This document shows positions 272 through 60,401 of a stretch of DNA of 64,000 nt, one piece after another. Each line of letters opens with the position of its first letter. Position 1 is the first letter of the stretch. The position numbers and the translations under genes were made by a program. The notes under the pieces are model-generated. The model ran no database searches. It saw only the letters and a list, made by a program, of their open reading frames with translations, and was not told where the DNA came from. The stretch covers positions 992,001 to 1,056,000 of the forward strand of contig CM000434.1 of NCBI GenBank assembly GCA_000165345.1, in the 5' to 3' direction.

Positions 272-1153
272 AAGTTTAAATCACTCATTGCATTCCACCA
301 GACTTAGATGAAGGTAGAATAGGAGACAATTTGTAATAAAGAAAATATTAATGTATTTATTTTTATATGTTCAAGAAACCTTTATTAGTTTGGTTTTAGT
401 TAATGTTTAAGCCATTGAGATTTTGCTAATTGTGTAATTACTTTTTCAAAAAAAAAGTGAAATAGTATAAAAGCATATGAATGGGAGAATGAATAAAAAG
501 TTTCTTGATATAACTTTTAAAGTAAAACTTCATTAAAATAGTTGAACAAAAGATTAACACAAGTATAAAAGATAAAATTTGGGTGAATAATTAGAAGATT
601 TTATTTTTGCAGAAAAAAAAAGATGAATGATTTACTATTAATTTTTGCTTAAGCAATAAAATTCAATTATAAGAAGGAAGATCTACTAAAATTTTTGAAT
701 ATATTCTTAATATTTATGCAGTCCATTATTAAGAAAATCAAATATGAAACATTAATTTTTAAATTTTGATTTAGTTTGAAATGAAACTTGATGTTAATTT
801 CTTTCAGAAATAAAATTTAAAAGCTTCTCATAAGAGTATCTTTGAAGAAGTATTTTCATTTTTATTAAGTAGCATCTGGAAAATAAGAAATTCTCATTTT
901 TTTTTTGTATATATCATACATTTTAAAACTTAATTTTTCTATTTTCTCATTTTACCGCCATAATCAGAAATACATGTTATTCCTTTTTTCTATTAAAAAA
1001 TTGGTTTCTTGCTAGTAATTCTTTTTTAATAGTTTTATACTCCTTTTCATTAAAGATTAAGTTTTAAATTATTTCTAAATCAGTAAATTTTTTTTTCTTT
1101 GTTCTCATTTCTTTCAGAATTATACTAATTTGTTAGTATTTGACAACTCAAAC

Positions 1154-1174
1154 AGGCGGGCTGCCTTGCATGCA
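1154..1174. promoter_or_regulatory. E2F-like GC box (caggcgggc) plus TGCATGCA box upstream of MO25-like gene
   Basis: GC-rich islands in otherwise more than 75% AT spacer. Motif family recurs in nearly all 5' spacers of this window. Confidence 0.5.
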
Positions 1175-1548
1175 TTTAATTTGTATTGAGTTTTTTTGCA
1201 TCTGATTTTTTCCCCACATTGTACACGTAAGCGATTTCAATTACGTGTTTTTGCGGTAATTAAAATAATAACTATATGCCGGCATTTACATGCCAAATAA
1301 TTTTAAAAAGAAGTGTAGGATTGCATGTGGATGCATGCGAGTAGAATTAGCTGGTGAATAACAAGGAGAGTGCATTAATTAATTTTTGATATGAAAACTT
1401 AGAAGGTGGAAGAAGAGATAAAGTTGAATATATTAATTTTTAGATAGGGTATAAATGTATATTTATATATATTTATATTTTTAATTGACAGTAATGTTTT
1501 AGAGTTGAGCAGATAAGAATCCCATATTATTGCTAAAAGGTGTAATAA

Positions 1549-3110
1549 ATGTTGAACTGGATACATCTGCAAAAGAATTCATCAACTAATCTGGGAGCAG
1601 ATTATGATGATGATGGTAATTATTGCATAAATAATGATAATAAAAGTAATAATATAAGTGATAGTAATGGAATAATAAGTAAGATAGGCAAAAGCATTAT
1701 CGGCAACAATGTTGAAAAAGAGAAAAATAACTTAGAAAATGAAGAATACGAAAAAGTGAAAAGAAAGTTCTTGCAAGTTTGCAATGAAATTAACGTAAAT
1801 ATAATTAAATTAATAAATAGTGTATTAGTTAAAGACGAAGATAATATAGAAAAGTTAGAAAAAAGAGATGAAAGAGAAAAAATTTTTGAGAAAGTTATAA
1901 GTTATAGAAAAGACTTTAATAATATCTTTAGCACTGAAAAGAAGGAATTGAGTTTGAGAGGACCATTGGACGAAATTAAATTTATATTTCTTGATTTGGT
2001 GGATAAACAAGAAAAAGAATTGAATTTGTGGTTAAATGATAGGAATCAACAAAAAATGGAATGGAATGAAAGAGTTGAACGTATTTATAAACAAATATTC
2101 ACTTTATCTGAAATTTTCTGTGATTCTTTACTTCTAAACATAACATGTGTACTAGGATATGTTTCAATGGAAGAGCACTCTTTATGGGTAAGCATAATTT
2201 CTTTGCTTATTGTATTTGAAATAAGAAGTTGTCAGCATACAGTTTTATTAAAAGAAAATGAATTAATTAATGAAATTGATCAAGAAAATTTTGTAATACT
2301 TGAATGGCTTAATAAAAATTGTGATGAATTTTTTTCATTATTACTTAAACAATACTCAATAATTCCAATCACATATAAAATTGGAGAAGTACTTAGAGAT
2401 ATATCTACTATATTAAATCTTGCACAAGGTCCAGGAATTGTTGATAAACAAAATAATAAAACTTTCCCAATCTCAGAATCATTCAAGAATAAAAGTAATG
2501 AAATTGCAGAACATTTAATATATAAACAAGAAATCTTCACCAATTTAATTAAATTATCAGGAAATCAATGTTTTGACATATCTTCTGATTCTATTTCAAC
2601 TTTAAGGTGTTATTTATTTGTTTCACCTAAAATTACGAATGAATACATATTAAAGAATCAACAAGATTTTTTTTCAAATATATTCAAAATTCTAATCCAA
2701 TCAACTGAATATGTACCACAAAGGCATGGTTTAAGATTGTTAAATCAGTTATTATCATTAAAAGAACTCTCAAAAGTAATGACAGCATTTTCAAGTAACT
2801 GTGAATATCTCAAAATTTTTATGAATTTGATCACATCTCACTTAAATACTACTTCATTCGAAGCATTTCATATTTTTAAGCTTTTTGTTGCAAATCCCAA
2901 TAAATCACCAGGAATTCAAAAGATTTTATTTAAAAATAAAGATAAAATAGTTGAATTCCTAATTCATTTCCAAACTTCCAGAACTGATCCACAATTCATT
3001 TCAGATAAACAGGTAAGTCACTTACTTCACACATCAATTATTTTGCTAATAATAACCTTCTATTATTTCAGTTTGTAATTAATAAAATTAAAGATTTAAA
3101 AGCAATCTAA
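1549..3110 (+). CDS. MO25: MO25/Hym1 (calcium-binding protein 39)-like scaffold protein; two exons 1549..3012 and 3072..3110
   Basis: 509-aa ORF; C-terminal half aligns with MO25 family (…SFEAFHIFKLFVANPNK…KDKIVEFL…QTSRTDPQF). ORF read-through ends in junk, but splicing GTAAGT(3013)…AG(3071) in phase 0 restores the conserved MO25 C-terminus (SDKQ|FVINKIKDLKAI*, cf. human DEKTYLVKQIRDLK). Asn-rich N-terminal extension. Confidence 0.85.
3013..3071 (+). other. 59-nt spliceosomal intron of the MO25-like gene (GTAAGT donor, TTTCAG acceptor)
   Basis: cag|gtaagtc at 3010-3019 and ttatttcag|ttt at 3063-3074. Removal keeps frame and recreates the conserved MO25 C-terminal motif. Confidence 0.8.
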
Positions 3111-3144
3111 AATAATTCCTATTTTATATAACCATTTTTGCACA

Positions 3145-8457: not shown

Positions 8458-9828
8458 ATGAATAAACATAGAAATTTTTTAAGAAAGTTATGTTCTGGCC
8501 CGATATTATTATTAATAATTTTGAGCTTATCCAATAGTACTGAAGTGGATAAAGCTATTAATTTTAAAGAAAACTTACAATCAAAAGAATCAACATTTTC
8601 AACAGGGCTTAGAATACCAAATTATAATAATCATTCTGAAATTTGTAGATTATGTGGTTGTGACTCTACGAAGAATGTAAATGTAGAAGGTTTTAAATCT
8701 TTTACATGTAGTAACTGCAACAAATCCAAAATTCAAGAAGGAGATTGCATTTTGCAAGGAGCAATAAATGATTCAAACAATAACAAAACTGAACTAGTTC
8801 ATGGACTAGAAACTTCAGTTTTTGGAGATTATAGAAGTTTGTTCTTTGGGAAATCTGACTTTTTAACCAGTAGAAGCTATAGAAATAATCTATTGGCTCG
8901 TATTTTTGAACCAGAATTTACATGGGAAAATTTTTCACATGGAAGTATTAAAGATAATTGTAAAATATACAGAGATGAAAATGATGATTTTGAACATTTT
9001 AAGCTTAGTTTTACTTATACACTACATGGCGACCGAAATTGTACACGTCTTTTACTTCATTTTGTGAATAAACACACTGGAAGTACTCTATATAAGAATT
9101 TAAGTCCATTTAAAGAAATAGAAAGTGATTATGATTTAAATTCATTGATGGTTTTTAGGCATGATGATATCAAAGTTAGAGTAGATTCTCTTGAGAAGGT
9201 TAATCTTCACCAAGAATTCAATATCACTTCATACGACTCACCTCCCAAATTCCTATTTAGTTCTGAACAACAAGAATGGGTACCCGTTAGTTTACGGAAT
9301 CAAGAAATTATTGTTAATCCAAAAATTATTCATGAAAGGTTATTAATTATATTTCAGCTCATTAACTCCCAAAGTTCAACTCCAAGCTGCAAAATGGACA
9401 ATGTTAAAGTCGAAGTTGTTGTTCAATGTAAATCTGTAGCTTTCCCGCCAAACCCAAAATACAATAAGGATTTTGTTCAAGATAAACTTAAGAAAATGCA
9501 TTCTAAGTATGATGATAAAATTTTTAAGCTTTTCTTACAAAAATTTGAAGAAAAACTTATGCATGTTCTTGGCTCAATTCCTAATGCTCTACTCACTACA
9601 AATAGTAACAAGTTAATAACGAATACACCCTTGAGCAACTTTTCAATTCCTTGCAAAGAAGCTATTTATCTTGGCGATATTCCAAAGTTAATGACCAAAT
9701 TTAATTATACCTCTAAATTTAATGAACTTGCTAATTCTGGTTCCTATTCTACTTCAACACCAACTTTTGAAGATGTTGACGAAAATAAGCTTTTTAATGA
9801 CATCGAAGCTGCACTTAATACTAACTAA
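8458..9828 (+). CDS. secreted cysteine-rich hypothetical protein with N-terminal signal peptide
   Basis: 456 aa. Hydrophobic N-terminus (ILLLIILSLSNS), multiple Cys clusters (CRLCGCDS…CSNCNKS) and many N-glycosylation sequons. E2F-like sites at 8275-8301 upstream. Confidence 0.6.
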   Translation: MNKHRNFLRKLCSGPILLLIILSLSNSTEVDKAINFKENLQSKESTFSTGLRIPNYNNHSEICRLCGCDSTKNVNVEGFKSFTCSNCNKSKIQEGDCILQGAINDSNNNKTELVHGLETSVFGDYRSLFFGKSDFLTSRSYRNNLLARIFEPEFTWENFSHGSIKDNCKIYRDENDDFEHFKLSFTYTLHGDRNCTRLLLHFVNKHTGSTLYKNLSPFKEIESDYDLNSLMVFRHDDIKVRVDSLEKVNLHQEFNITSYDSPPKFLFSSEQQEWVPVSLRNQEIIVNPKIIHERLLIIFQLINSQSSTPSCKMDNVKVEVVVQCKSVAFPPNPKYNKDFVQDKLKKMHSKYDDKIFKLFLQKFEEKLMHVLGSIPNALLTTNSNKLITNTPLSNFSIPCKEAIYLGDIPKLMTKFNYTSKFNELANSGSYSTSTPTFEDVDENKLFNDIEAALNTN

Positions 9829-10242: not shown

Positions 10243-13200
10243 TTGATCATCCTAAAGGAGGCTTGCGTTAAAAAAAAGGACCAAATGGTTCGTAATGGTG
10301 ATCAAAGTCTTATAAACATATCATCTACAGACAAGTCTGATAAATGGGACTTGAAGCATAAAAATGAAGAAATTCCAACCAGAAAAGTGGTGGAGGAATC
10401 AAGTCTAGAATACTACGAGAGATCATCGCGCTCGGCCTCGCACTTTGGTAAGGTTTATAATGGACTATATCCAGTAGGTCCAAGATTACCAAGTTTCTCT
10501 TCATCCAATAAAAGAAGTAGGCTACAGAGTACATATAATGAGGATGAGTTCAGTTCCAGTTCAGCAAATAGTTCTGTTATAAATTCCGATGATAAAATGT
10601 ATATTGATTTTCCAATTCGAAATTTCTGGAAGATTGCAAAGACTCCTATAGACATGGAATCTCCCCAAATTGGGTATTGTCGAGGCTTTTATTATAGATT
10701 GTTAGTTCATCCCAGAGGAGGGAGTTGTAATGATTCTGAAAGCAGCTACTTGAGCGTGTTTTTGGAAGCACTTTACCATGAATCATATCCAGACGATTGG
10801 ATTTTTCCAAATGTTCGATTTCAACTTTCAGTTGTAAACTTTTTAGACCCCAAAGCAAATATCACGTCTTGGGCCCATTGGACATTTTCTCATGATGCAA
10901 TGAGTAGAGGATGGCATAAGATGGTTTCACATGTGAGACTCACTAGAGCTGCAGGTTTTGTTGATGACGAAGGAACCGTGTTAATTAGAGGTAGAGCTGA
11001 GCCTCCATTTCCGAGAATTTGGTCAAGATCTCCTAAATGTAGGCCATGGAGTATATGGGGTACCTTACCCTATAGAAATGCATCAGCATTGGCTCAGTAT
11101 AAGCCTTGTATTACCGGAACCCGCCAAGATCAGAACCAAGGCTGTTCTGATAAGCATGTTATTACAACAAATCTTTGTGCTTTTCATGAATTAGCAGAGA
11201 ATTCTAATAGAGGTCTTCTTTCTTGTAGAGCAGAATCACTATCTTCAGAAAGTTGTGGCATTTCTCAACATCAGTTAGAAGGCTCCTTATTAGTAGGGAG
11301 TACTCCTTTGTCAATTATGGATAGACTTTTATGGTCCAGTAGTAATTTGTTTGTTCCAACTTTAAGATCTCAGCTTAATGTGGACTTTGTTCCTGCATTT
11401 GTCCATTTGCTTTACCATATCAAAGAGTTTAGGAGGGCAATTTTCTCTTGGAACCCACGAATCCCTAAGAAATGTTCAACAAATCAAAATCCCAATTCTT
11501 CAGAAAGGTCAAAGAAGCATGATCCCAATCATTCTCCCGCCTCATTTATAGACCCCCAACAGCCACGTACATCCATTATTGAGGCTCTTCAGAAAACCTT
11601 TGCATATATGACTCTCTGGCCAATTGCCTATTCTGTCAAAAGATCTATCCGACATAGCTGGCAAGAAAGAATAGCCACAGATCCTTCTCTTGTGGACGAT
11701 TGGTGTTTCTCTAAATGTTGTAAATGTGGTGGTGAATTTGACTCTTATCCTAACAGTCCTGAAATGACTGACACTTCATCACTCCATACATCAAATAGCA
11801 GAAATGGCCGGCATTGTGCTTCCGATAAAAGTATTCCAACCCAGAGTTCTATTTTCAAAGAAAAGGAATGTCTCAGATGCAAATTACCTCCTGTTCCAGA
11901 TTGTTCTTGGATTATGAAAGCTTTATATATGAACGATTTACAAAGGATTGATGTTGCTGACCCTCTCATGCGCTTCCATTGCTTCATTTTTGGCGCCATT
12001 TATTTGGAGTCTGCACATGCAATTCTCCAGATTGCCGCGCATCACAGAAAGTCAATTCCACAGAATTTCAGGGGTTCAGAAAAGTTTGCCAATTTAGAGT
12101 CATCTGAAGGGAAGGATGAGTTTGAGAGATCCGAATTAACTGATGGTGAGTATAAAGAGTTTAGAGAGTCGGATGAAAGGAGTTTAGGATCACAAAGAAC
12201 TAGAGATCAGGAACAAAGTCGAGGCCAAGGCCGAGGTCAAGGTCAAAGCCAAAACCAAGATCAAGATCAAAACCAGTACTATGATCATGGACAAACACAA
12301 GGACGAGATATGAATATCTCAATCTCTTCTATTTTTGACTTAGAAGAGGATCTGAGAGTCCCAACAGAGTTTGATAATACTTGCAGAGTATTGTTTTCCA
12401 GTGTAGCTGAAGATGGAGGTGATTGCTTCTCTGACTACTCCACGTGCTGCCTTAGAGCTAAGCATATTCATTCAATCCCCAAAGCTATTGAGCATTATGC
12501 TCACAGATTTAAAAGATTCCCTGAAACACTTTTTATTTACTTCACTCCTCCAAAAAATGCCAAGAAGGGAGAGTTGTTTGACGTTCCTTTTAGGCTTGAA
12601 GCATCATTTTTATTGGAGAATTCCAATGTAAATGTAAATACAGGTATCGGAGTGGTTGATCAAGATTTTAAGGGTATAAAATCTGATAATCGTGGACAAA
12701 ACACTAATCAACAAGAGGATATTCAACCTCTTGTCACTGAACAATTCCAAGATGATGAAGTTATTGATGAAAGTACTCCAGACCTGAAAGGTAAAGTTAG
12801 AGGTAATAAAGAAGCAACAGGCTCTGAATCTGGTCAAAATACAACGAGCGTAGTTTTGGACAATAATGATTCTGCATTATGTGTTGAATCCAATGATGAA
12901 TACTCTTTAGAATACGTCTCAGAGGATGGATTTGATGAGAATCAGGACACCTCTATTCAATCTGATAGTCAGGACGATACAACAGGACATAAAAGTGATG
13001 TCAAATCTCCAAATTCTGAGAACTTCTTTGGATCTTCCAGCCAATATATGGAAAAATGGTACTCATTATATGGAGTGATCATTAAAGAAGGAGACGCTTC
13101 TGGAAGTAATTCTACAAGAAGTGTTCATCAACTTCTAATTAGACCTGAAGAAGATGGTCCATGGTTTAGAATTTGTGATGGTTTAGTTGAAAGACTTATA

Positions 13201-19200: not shown

Positions 19201-21702
19201 TTATCAAATATTGTCTCAAATGCTTCAAATAGAATATTCTCAAAATGTCTTTCATCAGATGGAGGTGATTCTATTGCAAAATATAATGTTTGTGAACATA
19301 TCAAGTTTAAGAATTATAATAAAGGTTCTCCATCCACATTTTCTTTATGTACATGTATTTCAAAACCCGGTAACGTAAATAAGATTAGAGCTTATATGCA
19401 TCAAATTGGTCATACAATTGTTGGTGATTCTAAACATCTTGGTCAGAAACAACTAAGTTTGGATAGAAGATATTTTCCTAATATATTCTTTTATTGTACT
19501 CATTTGGAGATTCCTTTAATGCAAAATAATAATGTTAAAAAAGATGGTGATCATGAAATAGAGGAAAAGCGTGATGGGAATACAATAATATTGGATAGTA
19601 ATGCAATAATAAATAAAGAAAGTATTAAAGTTATGGCTCCAGTTTCAAGAGATATAATGGAACTTCTTGAGAATGATTTTGAAATTACAGAAAAGTTCTC
19701 AGATATGTACTTTTGTCATTTTTATAAGACTAATGTTGAACTTGAAAAGTTGGATAAAGCTGAAAAGACTTCACAAGTTACCCCTTCTGATGCTGATATA
19801 GAAACTAGAGTTGGGGATGATTTAGTAGAGTATAATGAAATTAAGGCTACAAATATGAAATCTGGTAATGTTATTATTAATGATGAAAAAGATAAAAGAA
19901 AATGTTCAGAAAGTACAGAAAATGATAATTTTGAGCCTCTTAGTATATCAAATACTCTGATAGCTTCTCTTCCTGGACTTGGATTTGGACTTACACCATT
20001 TCTTGGTATGCCTAATTCTCAATATGCTGCAAGTGTGAATTGTTCTCAAGATGAGAAATCATTGGAACGTAAACAAAACCAGCGATTATCATTATCTTCT
20101 TCTTCCTCCTCTTCTTCTTCCTCCTCTTCTTCCTCCTCTTCTTCTTCCTCCTCTTCTTCCTCCTCTTCCTCCTCTACTTCTTCTTCAGTTCATACTATGA
20201 TACCGCCAGATTCGGCTAGCTTATCTTCTCCAACTCCGGCATCAACTTTACATGCAAAGACAAATGCTGGAGTATTTACATCATTTGGATTTGGAAGGAA
20301 TTTTCTAACATCTTCTGTTGATAATTCAACAAACTCTGCAAGCATTGGAGGTGGGATTGGAAGAGTTGGAGGAGGAATTGGAAATATTAGAGGTGGAGGT
20401 ATATCATCTACTGGTGGTATGACAGTTAATAATACTGGTTTAAGGCATTTGGTATCTCAACACAACCAATCCGGAGGTGGAAATGGAGATGGAAGTAGTA
20501 TCATTAACAGCAATAGTAACAATAGTGGTAATAACAATAATAGTAGTTCTCTTCCTATAAAGACTCATCCAAGCTTGGTTTCTTGTCTTACAGAATTAAA
20601 CTCAAAATCAGATGGATCTGCACTGGGAATTGGACTAAGTACGAGCAATTTGGTGCCTGGAGGAGGAAATATCTTCCATCAACAAAACTTCATGCAGGGA
20701 ATAATGACAGGAGGAACAGGAGGAATAGGATTGGGAGGTATAGCAGGAAGTTTAGCAGGTGGAGCTGCAGGTGGGGTAACAGGTGGGGTTGCAGGCGGAG
20801 TGGCAGGTGGAGCTGCAGGAGGTTTAACAGGAGGTGGAGTAGCAGGAGTAGGAGTTTCACCATCACCAATTTTCCAACATCACGGGAACAATACAGCTGG
20901 AATTGTAAATAGTGGAAGATATGGAAGCTTAACAATGAACAGTGGTATTAGAATGGATGCAGGCACTGGTACGTTAGGTAATAATGCAGTACAAATGCAT
21001 CATCAACAGCATCAACAACAACAACAAAGTTCAGGGGCAAAACAGGGCTGGAATACTCAAGATCTGCTTCAAAATCCAAGATGGACTTCATCTGAAGTTA
21101 ATAACGATGGTTTTGGAGGTGGAGTCAATAGAATTGTAGGAGGAGGAGGAGGAGTCTCTGAAGAAATGAATGTAAATCAATGGAATAATGGAATTGGCGG
21201 GAATTTCAGAGCTTTAAACTCAAGAGGAATTAATAATTCTGGAGGATTAAACCTGTCAACAGTTAACTTGGTTACAGGAATAGGTATTGGCGGCAACATC
21301 GGTATCAATAGTAATATTGGTATTGGCAGTAATATTGGTAATGGAAATAGTACCACTGGATTAGGAAATATAAATGTAACAGAAGGTACCGGTATAACAA
21401 TTGGATCAGGAGTAACAATGGGACCAGGAGTAACAATAGGACCAGGAGTAACAATAGGACCAGGTTTATGGGGACAACATGCTGCCCAACAGCAACCCTC
21501 AATCATTGTTGATCCTCCGTCTCAGGGGAAACATTCGTCAATGCAACAACAAATTGGAGGAATTCCCAATATTGTCTCAAATCTACATGCCAAAAACATA
21601 CAAGACGGAATTAGTTCCCAAAGATTTGATACTTTTCCTCATGAAAGGGGTGAAACTACTGAGCATTTGGAATCTAGACAAGGAAAGAAATCTCCATTTT
21701 AA
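10243..21702 (+). CDS. giant multidomain protein (3819 aa): MATH domain + degenerate USP-like region + low-complexity tracts + C-terminal RluA-type pseudouridine synthase-like domain
   Basis: Single 11.46-kb ORF. MATH/TRAF-like block (YIDFPIRNFWKI…GFVDDEGTVLIRGRAEP). USP-like Cys-box and His-box analogues with catalytic residues not obviously conserved (…FVHLLYHIKEFRRAIF…; YSLYGVIIKEGDASG…WFRICDGLVERL). RluA motifs ILVNNDDLCIILKPPFWYCPIEG … QYIFLCHG … KIRAYMHQIGHTIVGD … FFYCTHLEIPL. In-frame microsatellites. Alternative start MVRNGD at 10285. Confidence 0.8.
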   Translation: MIILKEACVKKKDQMVRNGDQSLINISSTDKSDKWDLKHKNEEIPTRKVVEESSLEYYERSSRSASHFGKVYNGLYPVGPRLPSFSSSNKRSRLQSTYNEDEFSSSSANSSVINSDDKMYIDFPIRNFWKIAKTPIDMESPQIGYCRGFYYRLLVHPRGGSCNDSESSYLSVFLEALYHESYPDDWIFPNVRFQLSVVNFLDPKANITSWAHWTFSHDAMSRGWHKMVSHVRLTRAAGFVDDEGTVLIRGRAEPPFPRIWSRSPKCRPWSIWGTLPYRNASALAQYKPCITGTRQDQNQGCSDKHVITTNLCAFHELAENSNRGLLSCRAESLSSESCGISQHQLEGSLLVGSTPLSIMDRLLWSSSNLFVPTLRSQLNVDFVPAFVHLLYHIKEFRRAIFSWNPRIPKKCSTNQNPNSSERSKKHDPNHSPASFIDPQQPRTSIIEALQKTFAYMTLWPIAYSVKRSIRHSWQERIATDPSLVDDWCFSKCCKCGGEFDSYPNSPEMTDTSSLHTSNSRNGRHCASDKSIPTQSSIFKEKECLRCKLPPVPDCSWIMKALYMNDLQRIDVADPLMRFHCFIFGAIYLESAHAILQIAAHHRKSIPQNFRGSEKFANLESSEGKDEFERSELTDGEYKEFRESDERSLGSQRTRDQEQSRGQGRGQGQSQNQDQDQNQYYDHGQTQGRDMNISISSIFDLEEDLRVPTEFDNTCRVLFSSVAEDGGDCFSDYSTCCLRAKHIHSIPKAIEHYAHRFKRFPETLFIYFTPPKNAKKGELFDVPFRLEASFLLENSNVNVNTGIGVVDQDFKGIKSDNRGQNTNQQEDIQPLVTEQFQDDEVIDESTPDLKGKVRGNKEATGSESGQNTTSVVLDNNDSALCVESNDEYSLEYVSEDGFDENQDTSIQSDSQDDTTGHKSDVKSPNSENFFGSSSQYMEKWYSLYGVIIKEGDASGSNSTRSVHQLLIRPEEDGPWFRICDGLVERLIPKIEFTEWKCHGGFFCAAAVYIAEDYIDSIAAGDVMADCDIKTINPKLYQETLDLLEVSEEELQYIPSWVSTQVNTYGPNNVHLEMPSSEVDHLAMCVDIANVTVCDSTTCVFGHPLMDAGLSIDPYSLWMLVDYRWGWPLVNSYFQLQEPLVQAFSADPSVILSGRTILTPSAQKLLNSLSFKSLRDSIPKFWSLLFDIMLGPDLDSKDLDAILQVVPHLRSLSANIFLEIHRLLEEFGISEESQDLLFSQSELYSALEPDVNHCEINKDDLQDQDQDQQHDKGCLKEYLKNNITIEDKLVPYNKVKMILYPSIPSHPPSFQLNQNEITPSYNIALNFINRLHILLWPHLIHFIYELLPVAITIRLKRLLFKSSDDLLFDPRLTPEDLCARFLTESKFLLESSCCPLNLIRFCDNKQLLNAAINQVAAALDIHGSSYTAASCSLSCPTNRMIDRFASELGSSNFVVPILVYITQILLSGTLYRVSSKLLPPEALYTWPTSSSNQESLSLTGIGNLINHKDSTPSKQSTGSKKRNSSNKSSSGTASSNGLIVPNPLSEAIQHLQVNQVSFSHIDPYVFIPLHTFHAVSTPLLVNIIFENDLIGRKSFASESFLCASRVLHVNRLATVRHLYSAIRKVLYQQFLDTKISNSLDTPDVTPLDTPQSKNNNEHNTIGGRQQSSGHTHTNKKNTISNIPIPIDCEGFDLSWIPSNPLDVFCLYSLRPDTDPTRRGRLKYTYMQPNDFLENHYYGPHKSNYVTYCDVAILICVPPELKLQIPPGSQNSDHITKNSSSQMNTVSVSGVGVPGKAASLMGSISAGIGESDSDCACLYTCPSHIAHSPVCQSSRMIEKTVPKIVSPLFKAKLIDPLWSSTKFPMNDDSVAPLLIFKWFDQTTLDITLLSASICEARKSLRDCIVSWVFPRARRMGLMPQNSSKETPNADDYTVLEECHIRVCQNVRRWTSSIKKINRTTGDVFIVQKRYNNLGSSQPLISDCSFISPFISAALSSNSYSGIVDDFPPSLSRDELLAIITSMNTKKINQLGIFNTPIKGISGSNSPTVLDLKKNSLDRTWPISASPMGGDPKLTFSQFFDILKHGDDSGDFLASQIEDLDIYSYQNSSCKISMEDISSLKSGTDQGNSLNQAEKGNHSVTGVSNETTSIDLKSVTTFTNTNTVQILNANNSNQNDLSAISSNSLIGGTGVAGTSGGGSKKKKKASKKLPGIPSLQKSSIVKALNAQRRLESQSTRLVDNDSADLSGLRGRDQGQDHDQDLDHDRSQGQNQNQDQGQGQGQAQDHDQDQDQHSNQYNEEESKQDNKGNEKRKEGHKEKDVERSDIKVNNLSTALKKDANSPESMDKAGLEAKPDSSSPSSSFSYGTVSLRPEKLQKVPDELFEIALESFSGDSFSVSSLVGRLLERVICRFSEISNRKKEDSSSHISETFSDSNNRSEFLLWMNGLNDLVCNLSLIGGSKKIDQTLIQREIIQLLRRLLSTETSSQQLSSVASESLSSIIKYLEDGNLEPCFKSIIYNIPQVGSGSRSLISVPGLLKTIPKYGNNFNKESFNNYYNNMYNILVPVQQRSAILFTILLIKSLTILSPSSIIEMHLGLLPKTDYIRSNSLIKSTGYKSIKSFVLLAYFLNVFGVKDAMDVIISIQGVKGFENLLIRMASYTIGLRQYATSNFIIENIEKLHDHHPSLDWVSSLRITDKLAISEEVLKKTLETICDHFSTKSNSAFAQNKKTLDLIQNVEGIVRFSDINDFAYEQAQLLEMRKVGKDSPQILVNNDDLCIILKPPFWYCPIEGTGMDEDEQDEEDKQDEQEESVEYEEELEYKEDETDGDKIENQRNDDKKRRKVKKKLDHDNIQDENNKDEKTGIRKDLKNKVSSIIIKEEDNDSEIEVEKDNNNSNTDEFEEILNSGRMESILNFLKLRCKGIGLDLRGNEKMIKRIGLKLGVEIGGPILILKNEDMEKYYNKNEILNQIHCQYIFLCHGQIQNSSDRNVSLSNIVSNASNRIFSKCLSSDGGDSIAKYNVCEHIKFKNYNKGSPSTFSLCTCISKPGNVNKIRAYMHQIGHTIVGDSKHLGQKQLSLDRRYFPNIFFYCTHLEIPLMQNNNVKKDGDHEIEEKRDGNTIILDSNAIINKESIKVMAPVSRDIMELLENDFEITEKFSDMYFCHFYKTNVELEKLDKAEKTSQVTPSDADIETRVGDDLVEYNEIKATNMKSGNVIINDEKDKRKCSESTENDNFEPLSISNTLIASLPGLGFGLTPFLGMPNSQYAASVNCSQDEKSLERKQNQRLSLSSSSSSSSSSSSSSSSSSSSSSSSSSSTSSSVHTMIPPDSASLSSPTPASTLHAKTNAGVFTSFGFGRNFLTSSVDNSTNSASIGGGIGRVGGGIGNIRGGGISSTGGMTVNNTGLRHLVSQHNQSGGGNGDGSSIINSNSNNSGNNNNSSSLPIKTHPSLVSCLTELNSKSDGSALGIGLSTSNLVPGGGNIFHQQNFMQGIMTGGTGGIGLGGIAGSLAGGAAGGVTGGVAGGVAGGAAGGLTGGGVAGVGVSPSPIFQHHGNNTAGIVNSGRYGSLTMNSGIRMDAGTGTLGNNAVQMHHQQHQQQQQSSGAKQGWNTQDLLQNPRWTSSEVNNDGFGGGVNRIVGGGGGVSEEMNVNQWNNGIGGNFRALNSRGINNSGGLNLSTVNLVTGIGIGGNIGINSNIGIGSNIGNGNSTTGLGNINVTEGTGITIGSGVTMGPGVTIGPGVTIGPGLWGQHAAQQQPSIIVDPPSQGKHSSMQQQIGGIPNIVSNLHAKNIQDGISSQRFDTFPHERGETTEHLESRQGKKSPF
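12210..12275 (+). repeat. in-frame (GGY/CAA/GAT)n-type microsatellite encoding GQGRGQGQSQNQDQDQNQ in giant ORF
   Basis: caaggccgaggtcaaggtcaaagccaaaaccaagatcaagatcaaaaccag. Confidence 0.8.
16981..17105 (+). repeat. second in-frame GAT/CAG/GGT trinucleotide repeat (encodes DQGQDHDQDLDHD…QNQNQDQGQGQGQAQDHDQDQDQ) in giant ORF
   Basis: gatcaaggtcaagatcatgatcaagat…cagggtcagggtcagggtcaa. Confidence 0.8.
20092..20188 (+). repeat. (TCT/TCC)n microsatellite encoding a ~30-residue poly-serine tract in giant ORF
   Basis: tcttcttcttcctcctcttcttcttcctcc… continuous for ~95 nt. Confidence 0.9.
20707..20855 (+). repeat. Gly-rich GGxAGG hexapeptide-type repeat (ggtggggtaacaggtggggttgcaggcggagtggcagg…) in giant ORF
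   Basis: Repeated ggNgSNgcagg units encoding GGVAGGVAGGAAGGLTGGGVAGVG. Confidence 0.75.
21403..21465 (+). repeat. tandem 18-nt repeat (ggaccaggagtaacaata x ~3.5) encoding GPGVTI repeats
   Basis: ggatcaggagtaacaatg ggaccaggagtaacaata ggaccaggagtaacaata ggaccagg. Confidence 0.9.
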
Positions 21703-21850: not shown

Positions 21851-21884
21851 ATGCATGCAGAACTTTTGGCGCCACCCCACACTA
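21851..21884. promoter_or_regulatory. composite ATGCATGCA + E2F (ttttggcgccacc) + G-box-like (ccccacacta) module upstream of gene 22221
   Basis: Contiguous 34-nt GC-rich module. 20-mer almost identical to module at 53535-53558. Confidence 0.6.
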
Positions 21885-22220: not shown

Positions 22221-24395
22221 ATGATTCCGAATGGATCAAAACTTGAGCTTGGAACTTTAGTATTAGGTTCTGAAACAGTAAGAAAAGGATGGAATGCATT
22301 TTCAACTTTAAATAATGCAATAGATGGAGTTAGAAAAGTGGCAAATGATGTAGTAGGATATAATAATTCAACAACAATAGGAAATGAGAATTATAAAGGA
22401 GAATTGGAAAATAATAAAATAGTAAGTATAATAGAGAAAATAGAAGTAGGACAGGTATATGGAAGATTAAAAAATGATTTAAAATTAATACAAATATTTG
22501 AAAGAGAAACAAAATCAATGGGAACTTTAGAAATTATTTCAATTAATAATAATTTAGACTTTTCATATTTAAATATAAGATGGAGACGAAAAATGGGTGA
22601 AAAATTAATTGATATACAAGGTAAAGATTCAAGCCTAAAATATAACTTAACAGCTGATGATGTAGGAACAATTATTATTATAGAAATATATCCAAAAGGA
22701 GAAGCAAATGATCCTTTAAATATTACATATTGTGAATTAGGACCTATAGAAATAGATGATACAACAAAGATATCTTTATCAAAATCTTTAAAAACAGGTC
22801 TTATTAGATTCCCTGTAGAAATTATAAAAGATGAATTTGAAAGCTTAATAAATCCAGAAAATTCTTCAAAAGAATTAAAAAATGATGAAGATTCAATAAT
22901 GACAAAAGATATTTTGGTAGTAACAAATGATGATGTTAAAGTAATTAAAAATGGAATGACAAGTTCAAATTCAAACTTTGAAAAGAAAATTGTATGGTCA
23001 GCAAAATACTTTGGTGGTAATATACATATTCAATTAAATCATCAATCATCATCTTGTCAAGAATTCACTCTTTGTTCTGGATACGATATTCATAAACAAA
23101 AGATATCAATTAAAACAACAAGTAGAAATGCTAGAGATATTGCAGCTTTAACAATTAGATGTTTAAATATTAGACACACAATATCATTAGAAGCTATAAT
23201 TGGAGGTGGAGTTTCCTGGATCCCAAAAAACTCAACAGTAAATGATTCAGATAATATGGAAATTGAAGAAAATAGAAAATTAAATATTTTTGCTTATATA
23301 GGACGTCTAGAAGATGAAATTGCAAATTTAGAGAATAACAAGGAAAAACTGAACGAAGATAAAAAACTTCTTCAAACTGAAAAAGCTATTTTAGAAAATG
23401 AATTAGCTGAGACAATTTCAGCTTATCAAGATATAATTTCTCAATATCAACAAGAAAAAGATACTAAAACCAATACTAACAAACAAACCAAAGAATTTAA
23501 CATAGAATTTGGGCTTGAAAAGAACACAGGAATTAAACAATCCAACAATAGTCCAAACAAAAAGTCGATTCAATCAAATTCAAATAATTCTCATAAATCT
23601 ACCTTACTACATGGTTACAGTGGTACCTATCCTATAAATAATTCAAAACAAGATGGATCTAGCAATTCAGAAAATAATAATAACTCACAGAAAAATGAAT
23701 CCATTCAACAAAATTCCACTGAAATTAATAAAATAATTGAAGAAAATGCTTCTCTTAAAGAGTCCATTTCTCAACTTAATAAAAAATTTGAAAATGAAAT
23801 TGGCGCCAAAGAGTCAATGGAGCGCATGCATGCAGAAATTGAAGAATTGCGCGGGAGATTGGAAAGGTCGGAAAAAGAAAAGGAAGACTATAAAAGATTA
23901 AATGAAAAATTAGATGGCGAAATCTTTGTTAAAAATCAAGAATTAGAGAGTATTAAGTTAGGACAATGTTTAAATTCGACTAGAAATATAGAAAAGATAC
24001 AGCAATTGGAAGATCGCATATTGGATCTTCAGAGTCAGAATTCTGAAAAACAACAAGCTATTCAAACTTTATCAACAGAAAAATCAAAGCTTCTAAAAGA
24101 CTTTTCATCATTAAAATTAGACTTTGATAAGCTTAAGGAGCAACATAATCAACTAAATAAGAGATACATAAGCTTAAATCTTGAGAATTCAAGAATTCAT
24201 GATCAAGAAAAATCATCAAAATTTGACAATGAACTCATGAATTCTGACTCTCAAAACAAAAATGACCAAGCTGTTGATATTACAAAACTAAAAAGTGAGC
24301 TTGAAGATTATAAGAAAACTAATTGTGAGCTTAACCAGACTATAACTCAACTTAAAACAAGAATACGAAGGTTAGCAATGATCAATTCTACTTAG
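22221..24395 (+). CDS. hypothetical protein, 724 aa, with C-terminal coiled-coil region
   Basis: Long ORF. C-terminal 300 aa heptad-rich (LEDRILDLQSQNSEKQQAIQTLSTEKSKLLKDF…). E2F/G-box/GCATGCA module 350 bp upstream. Confidence 0.65.
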   Translation: MIPNGSKLELGTLVLGSETVRKGWNAFSTLNNAIDGVRKVANDVVGYNNSTTIGNENYKGELENNKIVSIIEKIEVGQVYGRLKNDLKLIQIFERETKSMGTLEIISINNNLDFSYLNIRWRRKMGEKLIDIQGKDSSLKYNLTADDVGTIIIIEIYPKGEANDPLNITYCELGPIEIDDTTKISLSKSLKTGLIRFPVEIIKDEFESLINPENSSKELKNDEDSIMTKDILVVTNDDVKVIKNGMTSSNSNFEKKIVWSAKYFGGNIHIQLNHQSSSCQEFTLCSGYDIHKQKISIKTTSRNARDIAALTIRCLNIRHTISLEAIIGGGVSWIPKNSTVNDSDNMEIEENRKLNIFAYIGRLEDEIANLENNKEKLNEDKKLLQTEKAILENELAETISAYQDIISQYQQEKDTKTNTNKQTKEFNIEFGLEKNTGIKQSNNSPNKKSIQSNSNNSHKSTLLHGYSGTYPINNSKQDGSSNSENNNNSQKNESIQQNSTEINKIIEENASLKESISQLNKKFENEIGAKESMERMHAEIEELRGRLERSEKEKEDYKRLNEKLDGEIFVKNQELESIKLGQCLNSTRNIEKIQQLEDRILDLQSQNSEKQQAIQTLSTEKSKLLKDFSSLKLDFDKLKEQHNQLNKRYISLNLENSRIHDQEKSSKFDNELMNSDSQNKNDQAVDITKLKSELEDYKKTNCELNQTITQLKTRIRRLAMINST

Positions 24396-24546: not shown

Positions 24547-24558
24547 TTTTGGCGCCAA
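24547..24558. promoter_or_regulatory. E2F-like site ttttggcgccaa, 60 bp upstream of TRAPPC8-like ATG
   Basis: TGGCGCCA core in spacer. Confidence 0.55.
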
Positions 24559-24618: not shown

Positions 24619-27600
24619 GTGAAGAATATGCAAAGGGATGTAAATTTGAGGAGATACATTCTCCAAGTATTTTCTTCTCCAAATGTCGTAGCATTTGCTT
24701 CTGAAAAAGCCAGGAATATATTGGATAATGAATTTGGAGTATCACTTAATTCATTATTAAGGCCTCTTGGCGTGGAATCACCTTCAAAGTTTCTATGGCC
24801 TCCAAATGAAACTTCTAAAAGAAGTGAAGAATATACTTTAGATTATAACTGGCAAAATAGAATATGTAGAGAAAGTTGTCCAGCCTTCTTGTCTTTAAAA
24901 GAGGTATTCCAAAATAAACCAAAAGGATCACCAAATATATGGACTCCTCAAAATACTATTGAGGAAATTACTATTACTATGCAAGATAAAGAATATAGAA
25001 ATGATCATTTTGAGGTTAGATTTATATCTCTTTGTGATCATGAAAAAATCATACCGGAAAATGATAATCAAACAATATATTGTACAAATTTGGAAGCAAT
25101 AAAGTCTTATGGAGACTTTATTAAACAATTTCCATATAATGATCTTATTTCATCTAGTCTCCTTTATAGTGGAGGAAAGCAATTTGAATCAATGTTTAAA
25201 GAGTTTCTACAAGATGATTTTGAAATTAATGTTAATGATGATGTTATAGAATTTAATAGTGAATTACCTTTTTGGTTTGAAAGATGGTTAGAAGCTTTTA
25301 ATGAAAAATTCAACTTTTTAAATCATGAAAGTATATCTCAGCCTATAGGGGGTATCGTATTTGTTGATATTTCAGAAGATGATCCAATAGAATCTATTAT
25401 TGAAATTACTAATTCACTTAAAACTGGTAAAAATTTTGAAAAACTTGGAGGAAATCCTGGATACTATCTTTTTGGTAAAAAAAGTCATTTAGGATTCATC
25501 AATCATTCTAATTATTTATCCGATACCTGTAAGATCACGAAACCACATTATTTACAAGAATCATATTTGAATGATTTTCCACTCATTTATATATTTATTA
25601 ACGATGAAAAGTCGAATTTTGATTTAATGGAAACTGATCATAATATTATTTCAAGCTTTAAACTTTCATTTCCAGAAAGTATTTGTTATATTTGGAACAT
25701 TAAAGGTCATAATGCTTTGGGAGAAATTCAAGATCCAAGTAAAATTGTTTGGCCTGGAACGTTTTCACATCCATTTAAGGATTTTAATCCAACATTTTCT
25801 GCTAATAGATTCTTTGATTGTAATGAAATGGAACAACTTAATAGCTTTATTATTGATTCAATCAAAAATAGCTTTGTTCCTTGGTTAGAAGATACTATTA
25901 ATAGACTATGTAATCATGTAATTCAGTCAAGAAAAGGACTAAAAAATCATCTAAGAATTCTTTGGAGAAGACCTAGAAATGATACTAGTTCAAATTCAGA
26001 TGGACTACTTTCTAATCTTGGAGTTGGTTCAACATTTAGTAATATAGAAGAAAGATCACAAATTTTTGAACATGAAATCTCACTTTTCTCTTCTAAATCT
26101 AGTTCAAATGGAAATAATAGTTATAAAGGATCAAATACATCTACATGTGTATATTATTCTTCAGGATCTCTTGAAGGTCAAACAAGATTAGTTGCAGATC
26201 TATGTTTAGTATCAGGAATTTATTCTCAATCAATACATTATTATAAGCAGATATTGTCAGAATATAAGTTGGATAAATCATTCTTACATATTGGATCAGC
26301 ATTTTTCTCAATGGCAATTGCTGAGATACTTTCAGATTTTGATCTTGAGACGGTAACTGAATATTGTACAAATTCTTCAAATTCATTCTTAAAAAGTACT
26401 GATGAAATTGGTACTATTTCTGCTATTAAATCACTATTATTTCTCAGTTTGGTGATTTTAAACTCATTCAATTATAAAAAGAGATCTCAAGATCATATTA
26501 CAACTCAGGATGTTAATTCTTTTATGATCAATAATGTATGTAAGAATATTGTAAATGCTTTATCAAAGATATCTAATGAATTTCAAATTTCCCAACCAAA
26601 TCTAAGACCAAGATCTCTTTTCTCAATTAATAAGATGGATTCTCAAGATCATTCAAAAGATTCCATTACTAATCAATATTTATCAGATCTTAAATCGATA
26701 TCCGATATATCAAATATTTATAGAGAAAATTGTATTTTAAGTATATTTGGAGTAATAAACTATGTAATTTCAAGAGTTTTGTATTTATCATCAAGCTTAT
26801 CAAATTTGAACTTTAGAATTCACTTAGATCCAATAAATCTTTCACATTGTTGGAGTATCCATACAGCTCAAGCTGCTCAAGTTTTTCAAGATCTTGGACT
26901 TTTTGGAATATCTCTTAAACATTATTTAACAATTCTTCTTCATATGGATAGATTTTCATATAAACATATTCATAGATACCTTAAATTAAATTCTGCAAGA
27001 CTTTGTCAAAAACTTTCTTTACTTGCTCAATCAACTTTACTTTATTCAAGCTTAATACTAGATATTATTAATGATAAGATCTCATCAAATAATGTGATCC
27101 ATTCTAATCAAAATTCTAACCCCGAAACTTTATGGTTTCAAACTAATGAATCCAACTCTTTATCATTAGTTAATGAACAAGAAATTGAAATCAGTTTAAT
27201 TTGCTATAGAGAATTCATTCGATCTTTTGTAATATATAAACAAGGAGGATTAAAATCTATTACTCCAAGTTCAGAACAAAATGAATTATTTTCAACAATT
27301 TTATCAAATAAATTTTCAAATTTATCACTTTCTCAAACTCCAAGTACATTCCTTAAAATCCCACTTCCTCTCCTACTTGCTGTTGGAGCAGTACTTATTC
27401 TTGAGACGGACTATGAATCACTATTTAAAGCATTTGGAAAGAAAGAAAACAATACAATAAATCAAACAAAATGTACTTGTAATGAAAAAATTCCAAATAT
27501 ACTTGATCAAAAAAAGTTTTGTAATCATTATTTTAAACCTATGAATATAGAGGTACCGGGTACCATATTAAGATCGAGATCACAAAATGAAAATTTTCAA

Positions 27601-30506: not shown

Positions 30507-30743
30507 TTCTACTAAAAAAAGAATCTAAAAGACTAAGGATGTGTATTAAAGCTAGAAATGCATGCATGCATGCAATTATAACGGTATCGATTAAACCAGC
30601 TTAAGAATTTTCTTTTCTTGAGGGTGAAAAAAAAAAATTCACTCCTAGATTATCTCATTTTCTGTTGTATTCCTTTCTTAGAGTGTTACAAAAGTCCTGA
30701 ATATACTAAACTTAGTAAACATGTAATTAAAAAAATCAATAAT

Positions 30744-56668: not shown

Positions 56669-56947
56669 CTTATCATAGTTATCTCTAATTTGCTTAATTA
56701 AACTATTTTTCTTATAAGTCTCTTTAACCAGATAATCATAATATTTATTCTTTACTAGAATCCATTTAATGTTATTAATATGGCAATTTGGCGGGAATTT
56801 TATGCAATTCTTATTTGTTGTGCATGGCCTCGTTTGGCGCCCAGTCTGTGTATAAATGAGGTATAATGTTCAACTTGTATTTTAATAGAAGTTGTTGGTT
56901 CAAATTTGTAGATCCAAAGTTCGTTATGATCTTATTGCATTTCCAAG

Positions 56948-60242: not shown

Positions 60243-60387
60243 TCCCCTCCTTCTCCCCACATATCCTCTATCAAGTCTTTATCTAAGCAGAATAATAATA
60301 AATTCTCTCTGTAAAACGATTGCCGCCAATACTATGACTACCCATTTTGCATGTACCAGTCATTTGTTAACTTTGACGTGTTTATTA

Positions 60388-60401
60388 TTGGCGCCAAATT
60401 T
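60388..60401. promoter_or_regulatory. E2F palindrome ttggcgccaaattt 54 bp upstream of small Tim ATG
   Basis: TGGCGCCA core. Supports reality of the 95-aa gene. Confidence 0.55.

Follow-up and report, generated by a model that had tools for sequence, protein, structure and literature searches.

Our analysis of a 64,000-nucleotide stretch of C. parvum chromosome 6 (the window) indicates that positions 23800-23858, which lie inside a protein-coding gene, constitute a candidate E2F/AP2 module maintained by selection, most likely an internal promoter and perhaps an antisense one; based on the sequence comparisons described here, we place the probability of this reading at roughly 55%. The coding DNA at this position probably doubles as an internal regulatory element, and an intragenic regulatory element or promoter is the most reasonable reading because the cluster is non-random, is made up of promoter-class motifs, and shows selection acting on the DNA itself. 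A preliminary description of this DNA had placed three motifs at 23799-23860, in frame within the open reading frame (ORF) at 22221-24395, and we found them exactly there. Its proposal of an intragenic promoter is upheld by motif class and silent-site constraint in the qualified form just given, but two of the products it had suggested, a transcript for TRAPPC8 and a short sense isoform, are weakened. The features on which our analysis is based are as follows.

21852 to 21874, plus strand: promoter module of cgd6_4300 itself, TGCATGCA, 7 nt, TGGCGCCA, then CCCCACAC, 354-369 nt before the ATG
22221 to 24395, plus strand: host gene, a single ORF encoding a 724-aa coiled-coil protein, GenBank locus tag CPATCC_003007 (CPATCC_0030070)
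23787 to 23891, no strand assigned: footprint of synonymous-site constraint, the sole such peak in cgd6_4300
23800 to 23810, no strand assigned: perfect E2F/DP-type palindrome TTGGCGCCAAA, containing the rare codons GGC and GCC, with invariant flanking AAA GAG
23822 to 23835, no strand assigned: double ApiAP2 AP2_1 motif GCGCATGCATGCAG, extending through the rare Arg codon CGC
23847 to 23858, minus strand: E2F-like half-site, TCTCCCGCGCAA on the minus strand and TTGCGCGGGAGA on the plus strand, containing the rare codons CGC and GGG
24549 to 24558, plus strand: E2F palindrome of the TRAPPC8 promoter, 78 nt ahead of the ATG at 24628

The host gene is most likely cgd6_4300, an identity that we infer because of the C. 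meleagridis tag cmbei_6004300 and the neighbors cgd6_4290 and cgd6_4310, the last of which is most likely the downstream gene, TRAPPC8. The E2F/DP-type 11-mer stands in the context a-TTGGCGCCAAA-g at 23799-23811 and fits the consensus TTSSCGCCWAA / TGGCGCCA for a Cryptosporidium-type E2F/DP site. Within the double AP2_1 motif, TGCATGCA is located at 23827-23834, and CGCATGCATGCAG at 23823-23835 fits the AP2_1 consensus TGCATGCA / BGCATGCAH. The third string, TTGCGCGGGAGATT, occupies 23847-23860, and GCGCGGGA is best read as a degenerate half-site for E2F (minus strand, TCCCGCGCAA). The encoded peptide is IGAKESMERMHAEIEELRGRL, the G+C content is 48% in the 62-nt cluster vs 27% in the ORF, and the cluster sits 73% of the way along the cgd6_4300 coding sequence (CDS), i.e., outside the upstream non-coding DNA.

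Both core motifs are strongly over-represented in the window. TGGCGCCA occurs 10 times against 0.03 expected from shuffles, TTSSCGCCWA is present at 15 sites against 0.06 expected, and GCATGCA occurs 32 times on both strands against 3.5 expected. Eight of the 10 E2F octamers and nearly all AP2_1 sites are intergenic, although 83% of the window lies within ORFs of 120 aa or more, and TGGCGCCA and GCATGCA are ~20-fold enriched outside ORFs in this window. The motifs in the cluster draw on rare codons (CGC, which makes up 1.6% of Arg codons and is used twice; GGC, 7.9%; GCC, 8.0%; GGG, 8.8%), and synonymous resampling of the host protein gave a probability of 0.0037 for TGGCGCCA anywhere and of 0.00025 for GCGCGGGA. 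When all 22 window ORFs were synonymously re-encoded, 0.033 occurrences of TGGCGCCA were expected and 2 seen, with 0.0017 E2F+AP2 pairs within 60 nt expected and 1 seen. The AP2_1 motif TGCATGCA / BGCATGCAH is bound in vitro by the AP2 domain of cgd2_3490; the site in cgd6_4300 contains an exact TGCATGCA, doubled, but differs in being intragenic and embedded in the codons R-M-H-A, with one copy nearly forced by the peptide, in that a lone GCATGCA arises from M-H-A in P = 0.83 of synonymous re-encodings. The extension of the motif through the rare CGC codon is the only unexpected part of the single GCATGCA match, and any DNA-level selection on the AP2_1 site is argued for only by this extension and by silent-site conservation. 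As a recurrent motif in the window, GCGCGGGA has one exact and one one-mismatch match, which is chance level. The earlier claim that the cluster is unlikely to have arisen by chance is supported, with E2F/DP and ApiAP2 AP2_1 as genuine Cryptosporidium promoter-class motifs.

We also considered whether the cluster reflects an RNA-level element, an intron, a fused-gene junction or pure chance, and regard this group of explanations as extremely improbable. Pure chance is ruled out by the synonymous re-encoding together with a permutation test of codon conservation. An RNA structure was rejected on the basis of an ordinary folding energy (z = +0.38 and -0.58 for the two strands); an Rfam search of the cluster returned no match, and the spacing between the motifs varies among species, which argues against an RNA element. 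The cluster segment is precisely what one C. canis gene model (P0009) removes by splicing, but in the C. canis DNA the reading frame continues through it without a break, and in C. parvum a GT is missing where the donor would have to be. The suggestion that the ORF combines two genes, with orthologues split at this point, is contradicted by all 11 genomes examined, in which the ORF is single and colinear (660-745 aa) with unchanged flanking genes, and by distantly related proteins of 600-900 aa from outside the parvum group, which span both the N-terminal domain and the coiled coil. Pfam matches to the host protein were to coiled coils only and all sub-threshold, no solved structure was found among its relatives, and a profile search added no further Cryptosporidium orthologues with DNA.

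Eight genomes, spanning C. parvum to C. canis, conserve the cluster at the level of its nucleotides. The E2F palindrome is retained in 7 of these 8, with a G to A change in C. ubiquitum. In C. ubiquitum and in genome L012 the E2F site is doubled by an insertion of 24 nt, and in L012 the two copies lie 24 nt apart. The AP2_1 motif, as ATGCATGCAGAAAT, is invariant in all 8 genomes. The third motif, intact in 6 of 8, is less strictly kept than the other two, with one change in chipmunk genotype I (CGT) and three in L012 (TTACGTGGAAGA), and is lost in one species. Examination of silent sites demonstrated that 16 of 24 codons in the footprint are identical in C. parvum, C. canis and genome L007, vs 42 of 297 elsewhere (p = 4.6e-8), and that 0 of 5000 permutations reached this codon identity. 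Identical codons between C. parvum and C. canis make up 82% within 21 codons vs 32% outside (p = 4e-5), and between C. parvum and L007 89% vs 35% (p = 3e-6). Silent changes sit between the motifs, as do the substitutions M533L and I540M in a second C. canis isolate. Within the 63 nt, 5 of 31 columns in motif cores and 9 of 32 in spacers are variable; as this difference is not significant, the constraint may be partly on the protein. Two E2F-like matches in the neighboring CDS, at 21194 and 21287, served as a negative control, and their silent positions erode in chipmunk genotype I, C. ubiquitum and C. canis. The other CDS octamer, at 11991, is not conserved in C. felis, the only orthologue compared. 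A second silent-site peak, at aa 562-585 of TRAPPC8, was set aside on account of small numbers and the lack of a motif.

Constraint on translation or on the protein could in principle explain these patterns, with a conserved rare-codon cluster slowing ribosomes at the coiled-coil segment and the promoter likeness being coincidental, an explanation that we judge highly unlikely. Five rare codons do occur among 19, changes at two Arg codons remain in the rare CGN family, and the peptide ranks among the two best-conserved blocks in the C. parvum-to-C. canis species. A ribosomal pause, however, needs rarity and not exact palindromes identical to the neighboring promoter sites, and the other protein-conserved block (aa 598-625) shows codon identity at background only, i.e., it is without silent-site constraint. 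In C. felis the peptide differs but the motif content is kept, with GCATGCA present twice, and the only two GCATGC and the only SGCGCS in 2157 nt are found at the homologous spot. The duplication of the E2F site in two species also argues against protein constraint, as does the absence of the peptide from C. bovis and C. ryanae, both of which lack the motifs as well, and from a more distant 717-aa relative. The motifs turn over within one clade and are restricted to it, and the conserved peptide GAKESMERMHAEIEELRGR is probably in large part a by-product of the motifs.

Comparison of the cluster with the promoters on either side supports the reading as an internal promoter. In the C. parvum-to-C. 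canis species with flanks, E2F/AP2 motifs occupy three places only at this locus: the promoter of cgd6_4300, the intragenic site, and the TRAPPC8 promoter. The intragenic AP2_1 site matches the AP2 site of the cgd6_4300 promoter at 15/16 positions, and the TRAPPC8 palindrome is an inverted 14/15 copy of 23800-23814. The cgd6_4300 promoter module is conserved from C. parvum to C. canis, and the TRAPPC8 octamer is present in 9 of the 10 species examined, C. bovis and C. ryanae included, and missing in the SRA-derived L007. By analogy, the intragenic module would most likely function like these two intergenic modules that it resembles. We propose that an E2F/DP palindrome, a double AP2_1 site and a weaker E2F-like half-site form one module under purifying selection on the DNA, with codons that would serve two purposes, and that this module would recruit E2F/DP and an AP2_1-binding ApiAP2 protein, leading to a transcription start inside cgd6_4300; factor binding, initiation and direction are what we infer from the patterns above. 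Firing both ways is possible since both core motifs are palindromic and are arranged as E2F-AP2-E2F. Read on the minus strand, AP2 precedes E2F, matching the cgd6_4300 promoter. The T-run flank of the module, CTCTTTGGCGCC, is on the side where such a flank is found upstream of genes at 5 of 5 clear promoter octamers in the window, but this orientation rule, suggestive for palindromic sites, fails at 2 of 4 asymmetric E2F sites, and thus gives weak support for a direction. On these sequence grounds we lean towards an antisense transcript, which would be non-coding and run leftwards over the 5′ three quarters of cgd6_4300, with a sense transcript into TRAPPC8 as the second option.

An antisense transcript would have parallels in C. 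parvum. Li et al. 2021 (PMC7840661) report E2F/DP1 and AP2_1 as the two leading motifs in the 100 bp ahead of antisense lncRNAs, with both motifs present for 17 of these. The same paper describes the antisense lncRNAs as CT-rich and as usually starting near the end of the sense CDS. Both motifs are present in the cgd6_4300 module, and an antisense RNA here would likewise be CT-rich since the host-gene strand is A-rich. The site differs from those in lying 570 nt inside the sense CDS, and in a gene for which the accessible catalogue (396 lncRNAs) has no entry (CPATCC_003006x-8x, with the mapping of identifiers assumed). Twelve 14-15-mers from cgd6_4300, six per strand, gave 0 matches among the lncRNA FASTA sequences listed, a search in which 1 of 2 control primers matched. 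No antisense ORF of more than 51 aa is present at the locus. In sporozoites, open-chromatin peaks are dominated by E2F (bioRxiv 10.1101/2025.01.17.633476), and our literature searches on intragenic transcription start sites in Cryptosporidium and on cgd6_4300 returned nothing relevant.

The absence of a lncRNA for cgd6_4300 from the accessible catalogue would also suit a module that binds E2F/DP and ApiAP2 without starting transcription. Such a module could act distally, its target being either the cgd6_4300 promoter, which lies 1.9 kb upstream, or that of TRAPPC8, 0.75 kb downstream; alternatively, it could be a roadblock to the polymerase or an organizer of chromatin. The constraint and motif evidence is equal for this alternative and for a promoter, and the AP2+E2F module of the cgd6_4300 promoter and the intragenic module co-occur from C. 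parvum to C. canis where upstream sequence is available, with C. bovis and C. ryanae lacking both. We nevertheless consider binding without initiation unlikely, in that known sites in this compact genome lie within a few hundred bp of start codons (PMC3734150), and enhancer-like action at a distance was not found in the literature surveyed.

A sense-strand internal or alternative promoter, whose product would be either a TRAPPC8 transcript with a long leader or an isoform made up of the C-terminal coiled coil, is in our view quite unlikely. The order AP2 then E2F-like is also correct rightwards, Met536 is invariant in 10 of 10 species, and same-strand internal transcripts were left out of the lncRNA catalogue (PMC7840661). 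TRAPPC8, however, is weakened as a target by the conserved E2F site in its own promoter, 78 nt ahead of the start codon. Met533 and Met536 lie inside or directly after the motifs, Met533 is replaced by Leu in one C. canis isolate, and Met536 is also present in C. bovis and C. ryanae, neither of which has the module. A short sense isoform is weakened because, past the cluster, in-frame Met residues are confined to the C-terminal end, ~50 aa from the stop.

E2F/DP and an ApiAP2 protein are the chief two promoter factors of the parasite. The E2F/DP upstream motif of Cryptosporidium (Bankier 2003; Oberstaller 2013, PMC3734150) is 5'-TGGCGCCA-3', [A/T][C/G]GCGC[G/C][A/T], and TGGCGCCA and GCATGCA are over-represented upstream motifs in C. 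parvum (PMC3734150). The perfect 11-mer TTGGCGCCAAA is the same as in both neighboring promoter sites and is conserved like them, but the predicted site is 1.6 kb inside a CDS and not in an upstream spacer. Gene regulation in Cryptosporidium is poorly understood, and work on motifs has dealt almost entirely with spacers upstream of genes; here, a CDS site is conserved as strongly as the neighboring promoters and has a clean silent-site signature. Internal and antisense promoters occur in yeast and Plasmodium, and dual-use codons ("duons"), i.e., exonic transcription-factor sites, occur in human. The cgd6_4300 module resembles duons in that silent coding positions appear constrained by a transcription-factor site, and differs in that the amino acids of a conserved, clade-specific peptide seem to be set by the motifs, on comparative evidence alone.

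The cluster is a concrete target for the study of internal or antisense transcription driven by E2F/DP and ApiAP2, for which Iso-seq, ATAC-seq and stranded RNA-seq data sets already exist. It is possible, and we put this forward tentatively, that there is a class of deeply conserved, CDS-embedded E2F/AP2 promoters that fix local amino acids, of which this one drives a conserved antisense or bidirectional transcript controlling cgd6_4300 and possibly TRAPPC8. Conserved peptides in Cryptosporidium can be by-products of DNA motifs, which bears on annotation, on the reading of conservation, and on synonymous recoding in genetic experiments. Elsewhere in the window, other E2F sites in CDS are found at 9442 and 11991, a hint that the class could be sizeable.

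Three motifs lie within 60 nt of one another inside the ORF at 22221-24395 (+ strand), each in frame and each where the preliminary description had placed it, and together they encode the peptide IGAKESMERMHAEIEELRGRL:

23800-23810: TTGGCGCCAAA, E2F/DP motif
23822-23835: GCGCATGCATGCAG, ApiAP2 motif AP2_1
23847-23858: TTGCGCGGGAGA, third string

The 62-nt cluster is 48% G+C, against 27% for the whole gene. No Cryptosporidium promoter motifs are better known than the E2F/DP octamer 5'-TGGCGCCA-3' and AP2_1 (TGCATGCA, which the AP2 domain of cgd2_3490 binds in vitro; PMC3734150, PMC12246861), and their distribution in the window fits such a role: the octamer occurs 10 times (0.03 expected from shuffles), GCATGCA 32 times on both strands (3.5 expected) and TTSSCGCCWA at 15 sites (0.06 expected), with 8 of the 10 octamers and nearly all AP2_1 sites intergenic, although ORFs make up 83% of the window. 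All three motifs had been called promoter-class, which holds for E2F/DP and AP2_1 but not for the third string, which does not recur within the window and, read on the minus strand as TCTCCCGCGCAA, is best taken as a degenerate E2F half-site (TTCCCGCC type). E2F-class sites, together with a triple GCATGCATGCATGCA, are also found in spacers between the 3' ends of convergent genes (56788-56841, 60320-60397 and 30559-30574), where an mRNA promoter is not expected; these are candidate antisense or lncRNA promoters or unannotated small genes.

The window belongs to chromosome 6 of C. parvum Iowa II. The ORF encodes a 724-aa "coiled coil protein" (100% identity to EAK90029/CAD98471 and CPATCC_003007) and is flanked by a 3805-aa gene and by the TRAPPC8/Trs85 gene, which starts at 24628 (records CP029785.1 and BX526834.1). 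Because its upstream neighbor is cgd6_4290 (the gene used in MLVA typing, whose product has MATH and pseudouridine-synthase domains), its downstream neighbor is cgd6_4310, and its C. meleagridis orthologue is cmbei_6004300, the host gene is most likely cgd6_4300. No Pfam family scored above threshold for this protein and no relative with a solved structure was found; an exhaustive profile search gave 81 relatives, some clearly outside Cryptosporidium. Members of this uncharacterised family have in common a conserved stretch (profile positions ~115-210), a coiled coil at the C-terminus and a ...SRIRKL... tail.

We compared the orthologous loci of C. meleagridis, chipmunk genotype I, C. ubiquitum, two relatives assembled from SRA runs (L012 and L007), two C. 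canis isolates, C. felis, C. bovis and C. ryanae. Gene order was identical in all of them, and the cgd6_4300 orthologue was always one ORF of 660-745 aa, never split near 23.8 kb. Many of the 81 relatives, with lengths of 600-900 aa, cover profile positions ~115-714, some of these clearly from outside Cryptosporidium, and the suggestion that the long ORF combines two genes is therefore refuted. A C. canis gene model (P0009, at 1001-3142 of the locus from GCA_027243975.1) drops a 77-nt GT..AG "intron" coinciding with the motif cluster and then runs ~100 codons out of frame; this is an annotation artefact, since the C. canis DNA carries an uninterrupted 713-codon ORF with the motifs intact. In C. 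parvum the would-be donor position reads ATT, not GTT, and an intron was rejected. A structured RNA element was likewise rejected, with ordinary folding energy on both strands and no Rfam match.

The claim that the cluster is unlikely to have arisen by chance was borne out when the protein was re-encoded with local codon usage, for cgd6_4300 alone or for all 22 ORFs. Rare codons build the motifs: in the window ORFs, GGC makes up 7.9% and GGG 8.8% of Gly codons, GCC 8.0% of Ala codons and CGC, used twice inside ten codons here, 1.6% of Arg codons. Anywhere in the cgd6_4300 protein, TGGCGCCA arose in 0.37% and GCGCGGGA in 0.025% of trials; a lone GCATGCA is near-forced by Met-His-Ala (83% of trials). 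Over the full set of 22 ORFs, 0.033 octamers were expected and 2 seen, and 0.0017 E2F+AP2 pairs within 60 nt were expected and 1 seen. A second octamer deep in a CDS lies within 11991-12040 in cgd6_4290 (TTTTTGGCGCCATTT, peptide F-G-A), near rare CGC, GCC and GCG codons and with an E2F-like TGCCGCGC 41 nt downstream; C. felis has the same peptide and lacks the motif (TTC GGG GCC).

Codon alignment showed the module to be kept at the nucleotide level in 8 of 8 genomes, from C. parvum through C. canis, with no change in GGC GCC AAA GAG, ATG CAT GCA GAA and AGA and almost none in CGC and GGG, while silent sites outside it are near randomised between C. parvum and C. canis. Identical codons account for 82% of a 21-codon block and 32% elsewhere between C. 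parvum and C. canis (p = 4e-5), for 89% and 35% between C. parvum and L007 (p = 3e-6), and, for all three together, for 16/24 at nt 23787-23891 and 42/297 elsewhere (p = 4.6e-8). In a sliding scan of the gene the module was the only silent-site conservation peak, matched by 0 of 5000 permutations. Codon identity in the second block of strong protein conservation (aa 598-625) is at background level, so protein conservation alone is insufficient for the signal. As a negative control, two E2F-like matches in cgd6_4290 (21194-21203 and 21287-21296, peptide I-G-G-N, where the 3' part is Gly-rich) survive in C. meleagridis only; chipmunk genotype I, C. ubiquitum and C. canis have lost them through silent changes.

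The way the module has changed resembles the footprint of a transcription-factor site. Silent differences lie in the stretches separating the motifs, as do the amino-acid changes M533L and I540M of the second C. canis isolate, none being inside the motifs; chipmunk genotype I, C. ubiquitum and L012 carry a 24-nt insertion between the E2F and AP2 sites, which duplicates the E2F site in the latter two. The C. felis peptide differs at this position (…MSAKKHAEAGAQSEKESMQME…), and the only two GCATGC and only SGCGCS of its 2157-nt CDS are all located there. Since motifs and peptide are both absent from C. bovis, C. ryanae and a more distant 717-aa relative, the conserved peptide goes together with the motifs in one clade. 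Some protein-level constraint probably coexists with that on the DNA, because the spacers are almost as conserved as the cores across 63 nt.

In the parvum-to-canis species with flanking sequence, E2F/AP2 motifs occur at three places only in the ~3.4-kb locus:

cgd6_4300 promoter: AP2 at ~-368, E2F at -354, then CCCCACAC
intragenic module: 72-75% along the CDS
TRAPPC8 promoter: E2F at ~-78

The AP2 site of the module is a 15/16 direct copy of that in the gene's own promoter (CATGCATGCAGAAATT vs CATGCATGCAGAACTT), and its E2F with flank a 14/15 inverted copy of the TRAPPC8-promoter E2F. A top-scoring asymmetric E2F site, TTCCCGCCAA(A) at 9442-9451, has a relative position similar to the module, at 72% of ORF 8458-9828.

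The observation is genuine, and selection acts on the element; the best-supported reading is of a DNA-level E2F/DP + ApiAP2 element kept inside the CDS, notable for lying so deep within it and for seemingly dictating a conserved peptide. In a compact genome its most natural function would be transcription initiation, as for its two look-alikes. The intragenic promoter proposed in the preliminary description is plausible but unproven, favored by motif class, non-randomness and selection. Two of the roles it had named fare less well: TRAPPC8 has a conserved proximal E2F site of its own, which makes a sense promoter for it less attractive, and a short protein isoform is unlikely given that the usable Met codons sit inside or beside the motifs. 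We lean towards an antisense, non-coding transcript, since the minus-strand order, AP2 then E2F, matches the gene's own promoter, since an antisense product would be non-coding, and since the T-run flank is on the side where the window's clear promoter octamers carry it upstream of genes (5 of 5), a rule broken at 2 of 4 asymmetric E2F sites. Antisense transcripts are reported for ~10% of C. parvum genes. In the 100 bp upstream of C. parvum antisense lncRNAs the two leading motifs are E2F/DP1 and AP2_1, and 17 of these lncRNAs have both (PMC7840661); E2F is the dominant motif of sporozoite open chromatin, where 96 of 984 peaks are not classed as upstream regulatory (bioRxiv 10.1101/2025.01.17.633476), which fits initiation at the module. 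Among the entries covered of the 2021 lncRNA catalogue, from which same-strand transcripts were removed, none was for cgd6_4300. The module would be a further, unusually well-supported case of the E2F/AP2-marked internal or antisense promoters of C. parvum.

A minor silent-site peak at TRAPPC8 aa 562-585 (26311-26380; 7 of 9 codons across C. parvum, C. canis and L007) contains no recognisable motif and is probably a small-number fluctuation. Two AP2_1 motifs and CACACA lie at 53968-53989, in the first 10% of ORF 53696-56668, and the first ATG of this ORF is probably upstream of the true start codon.
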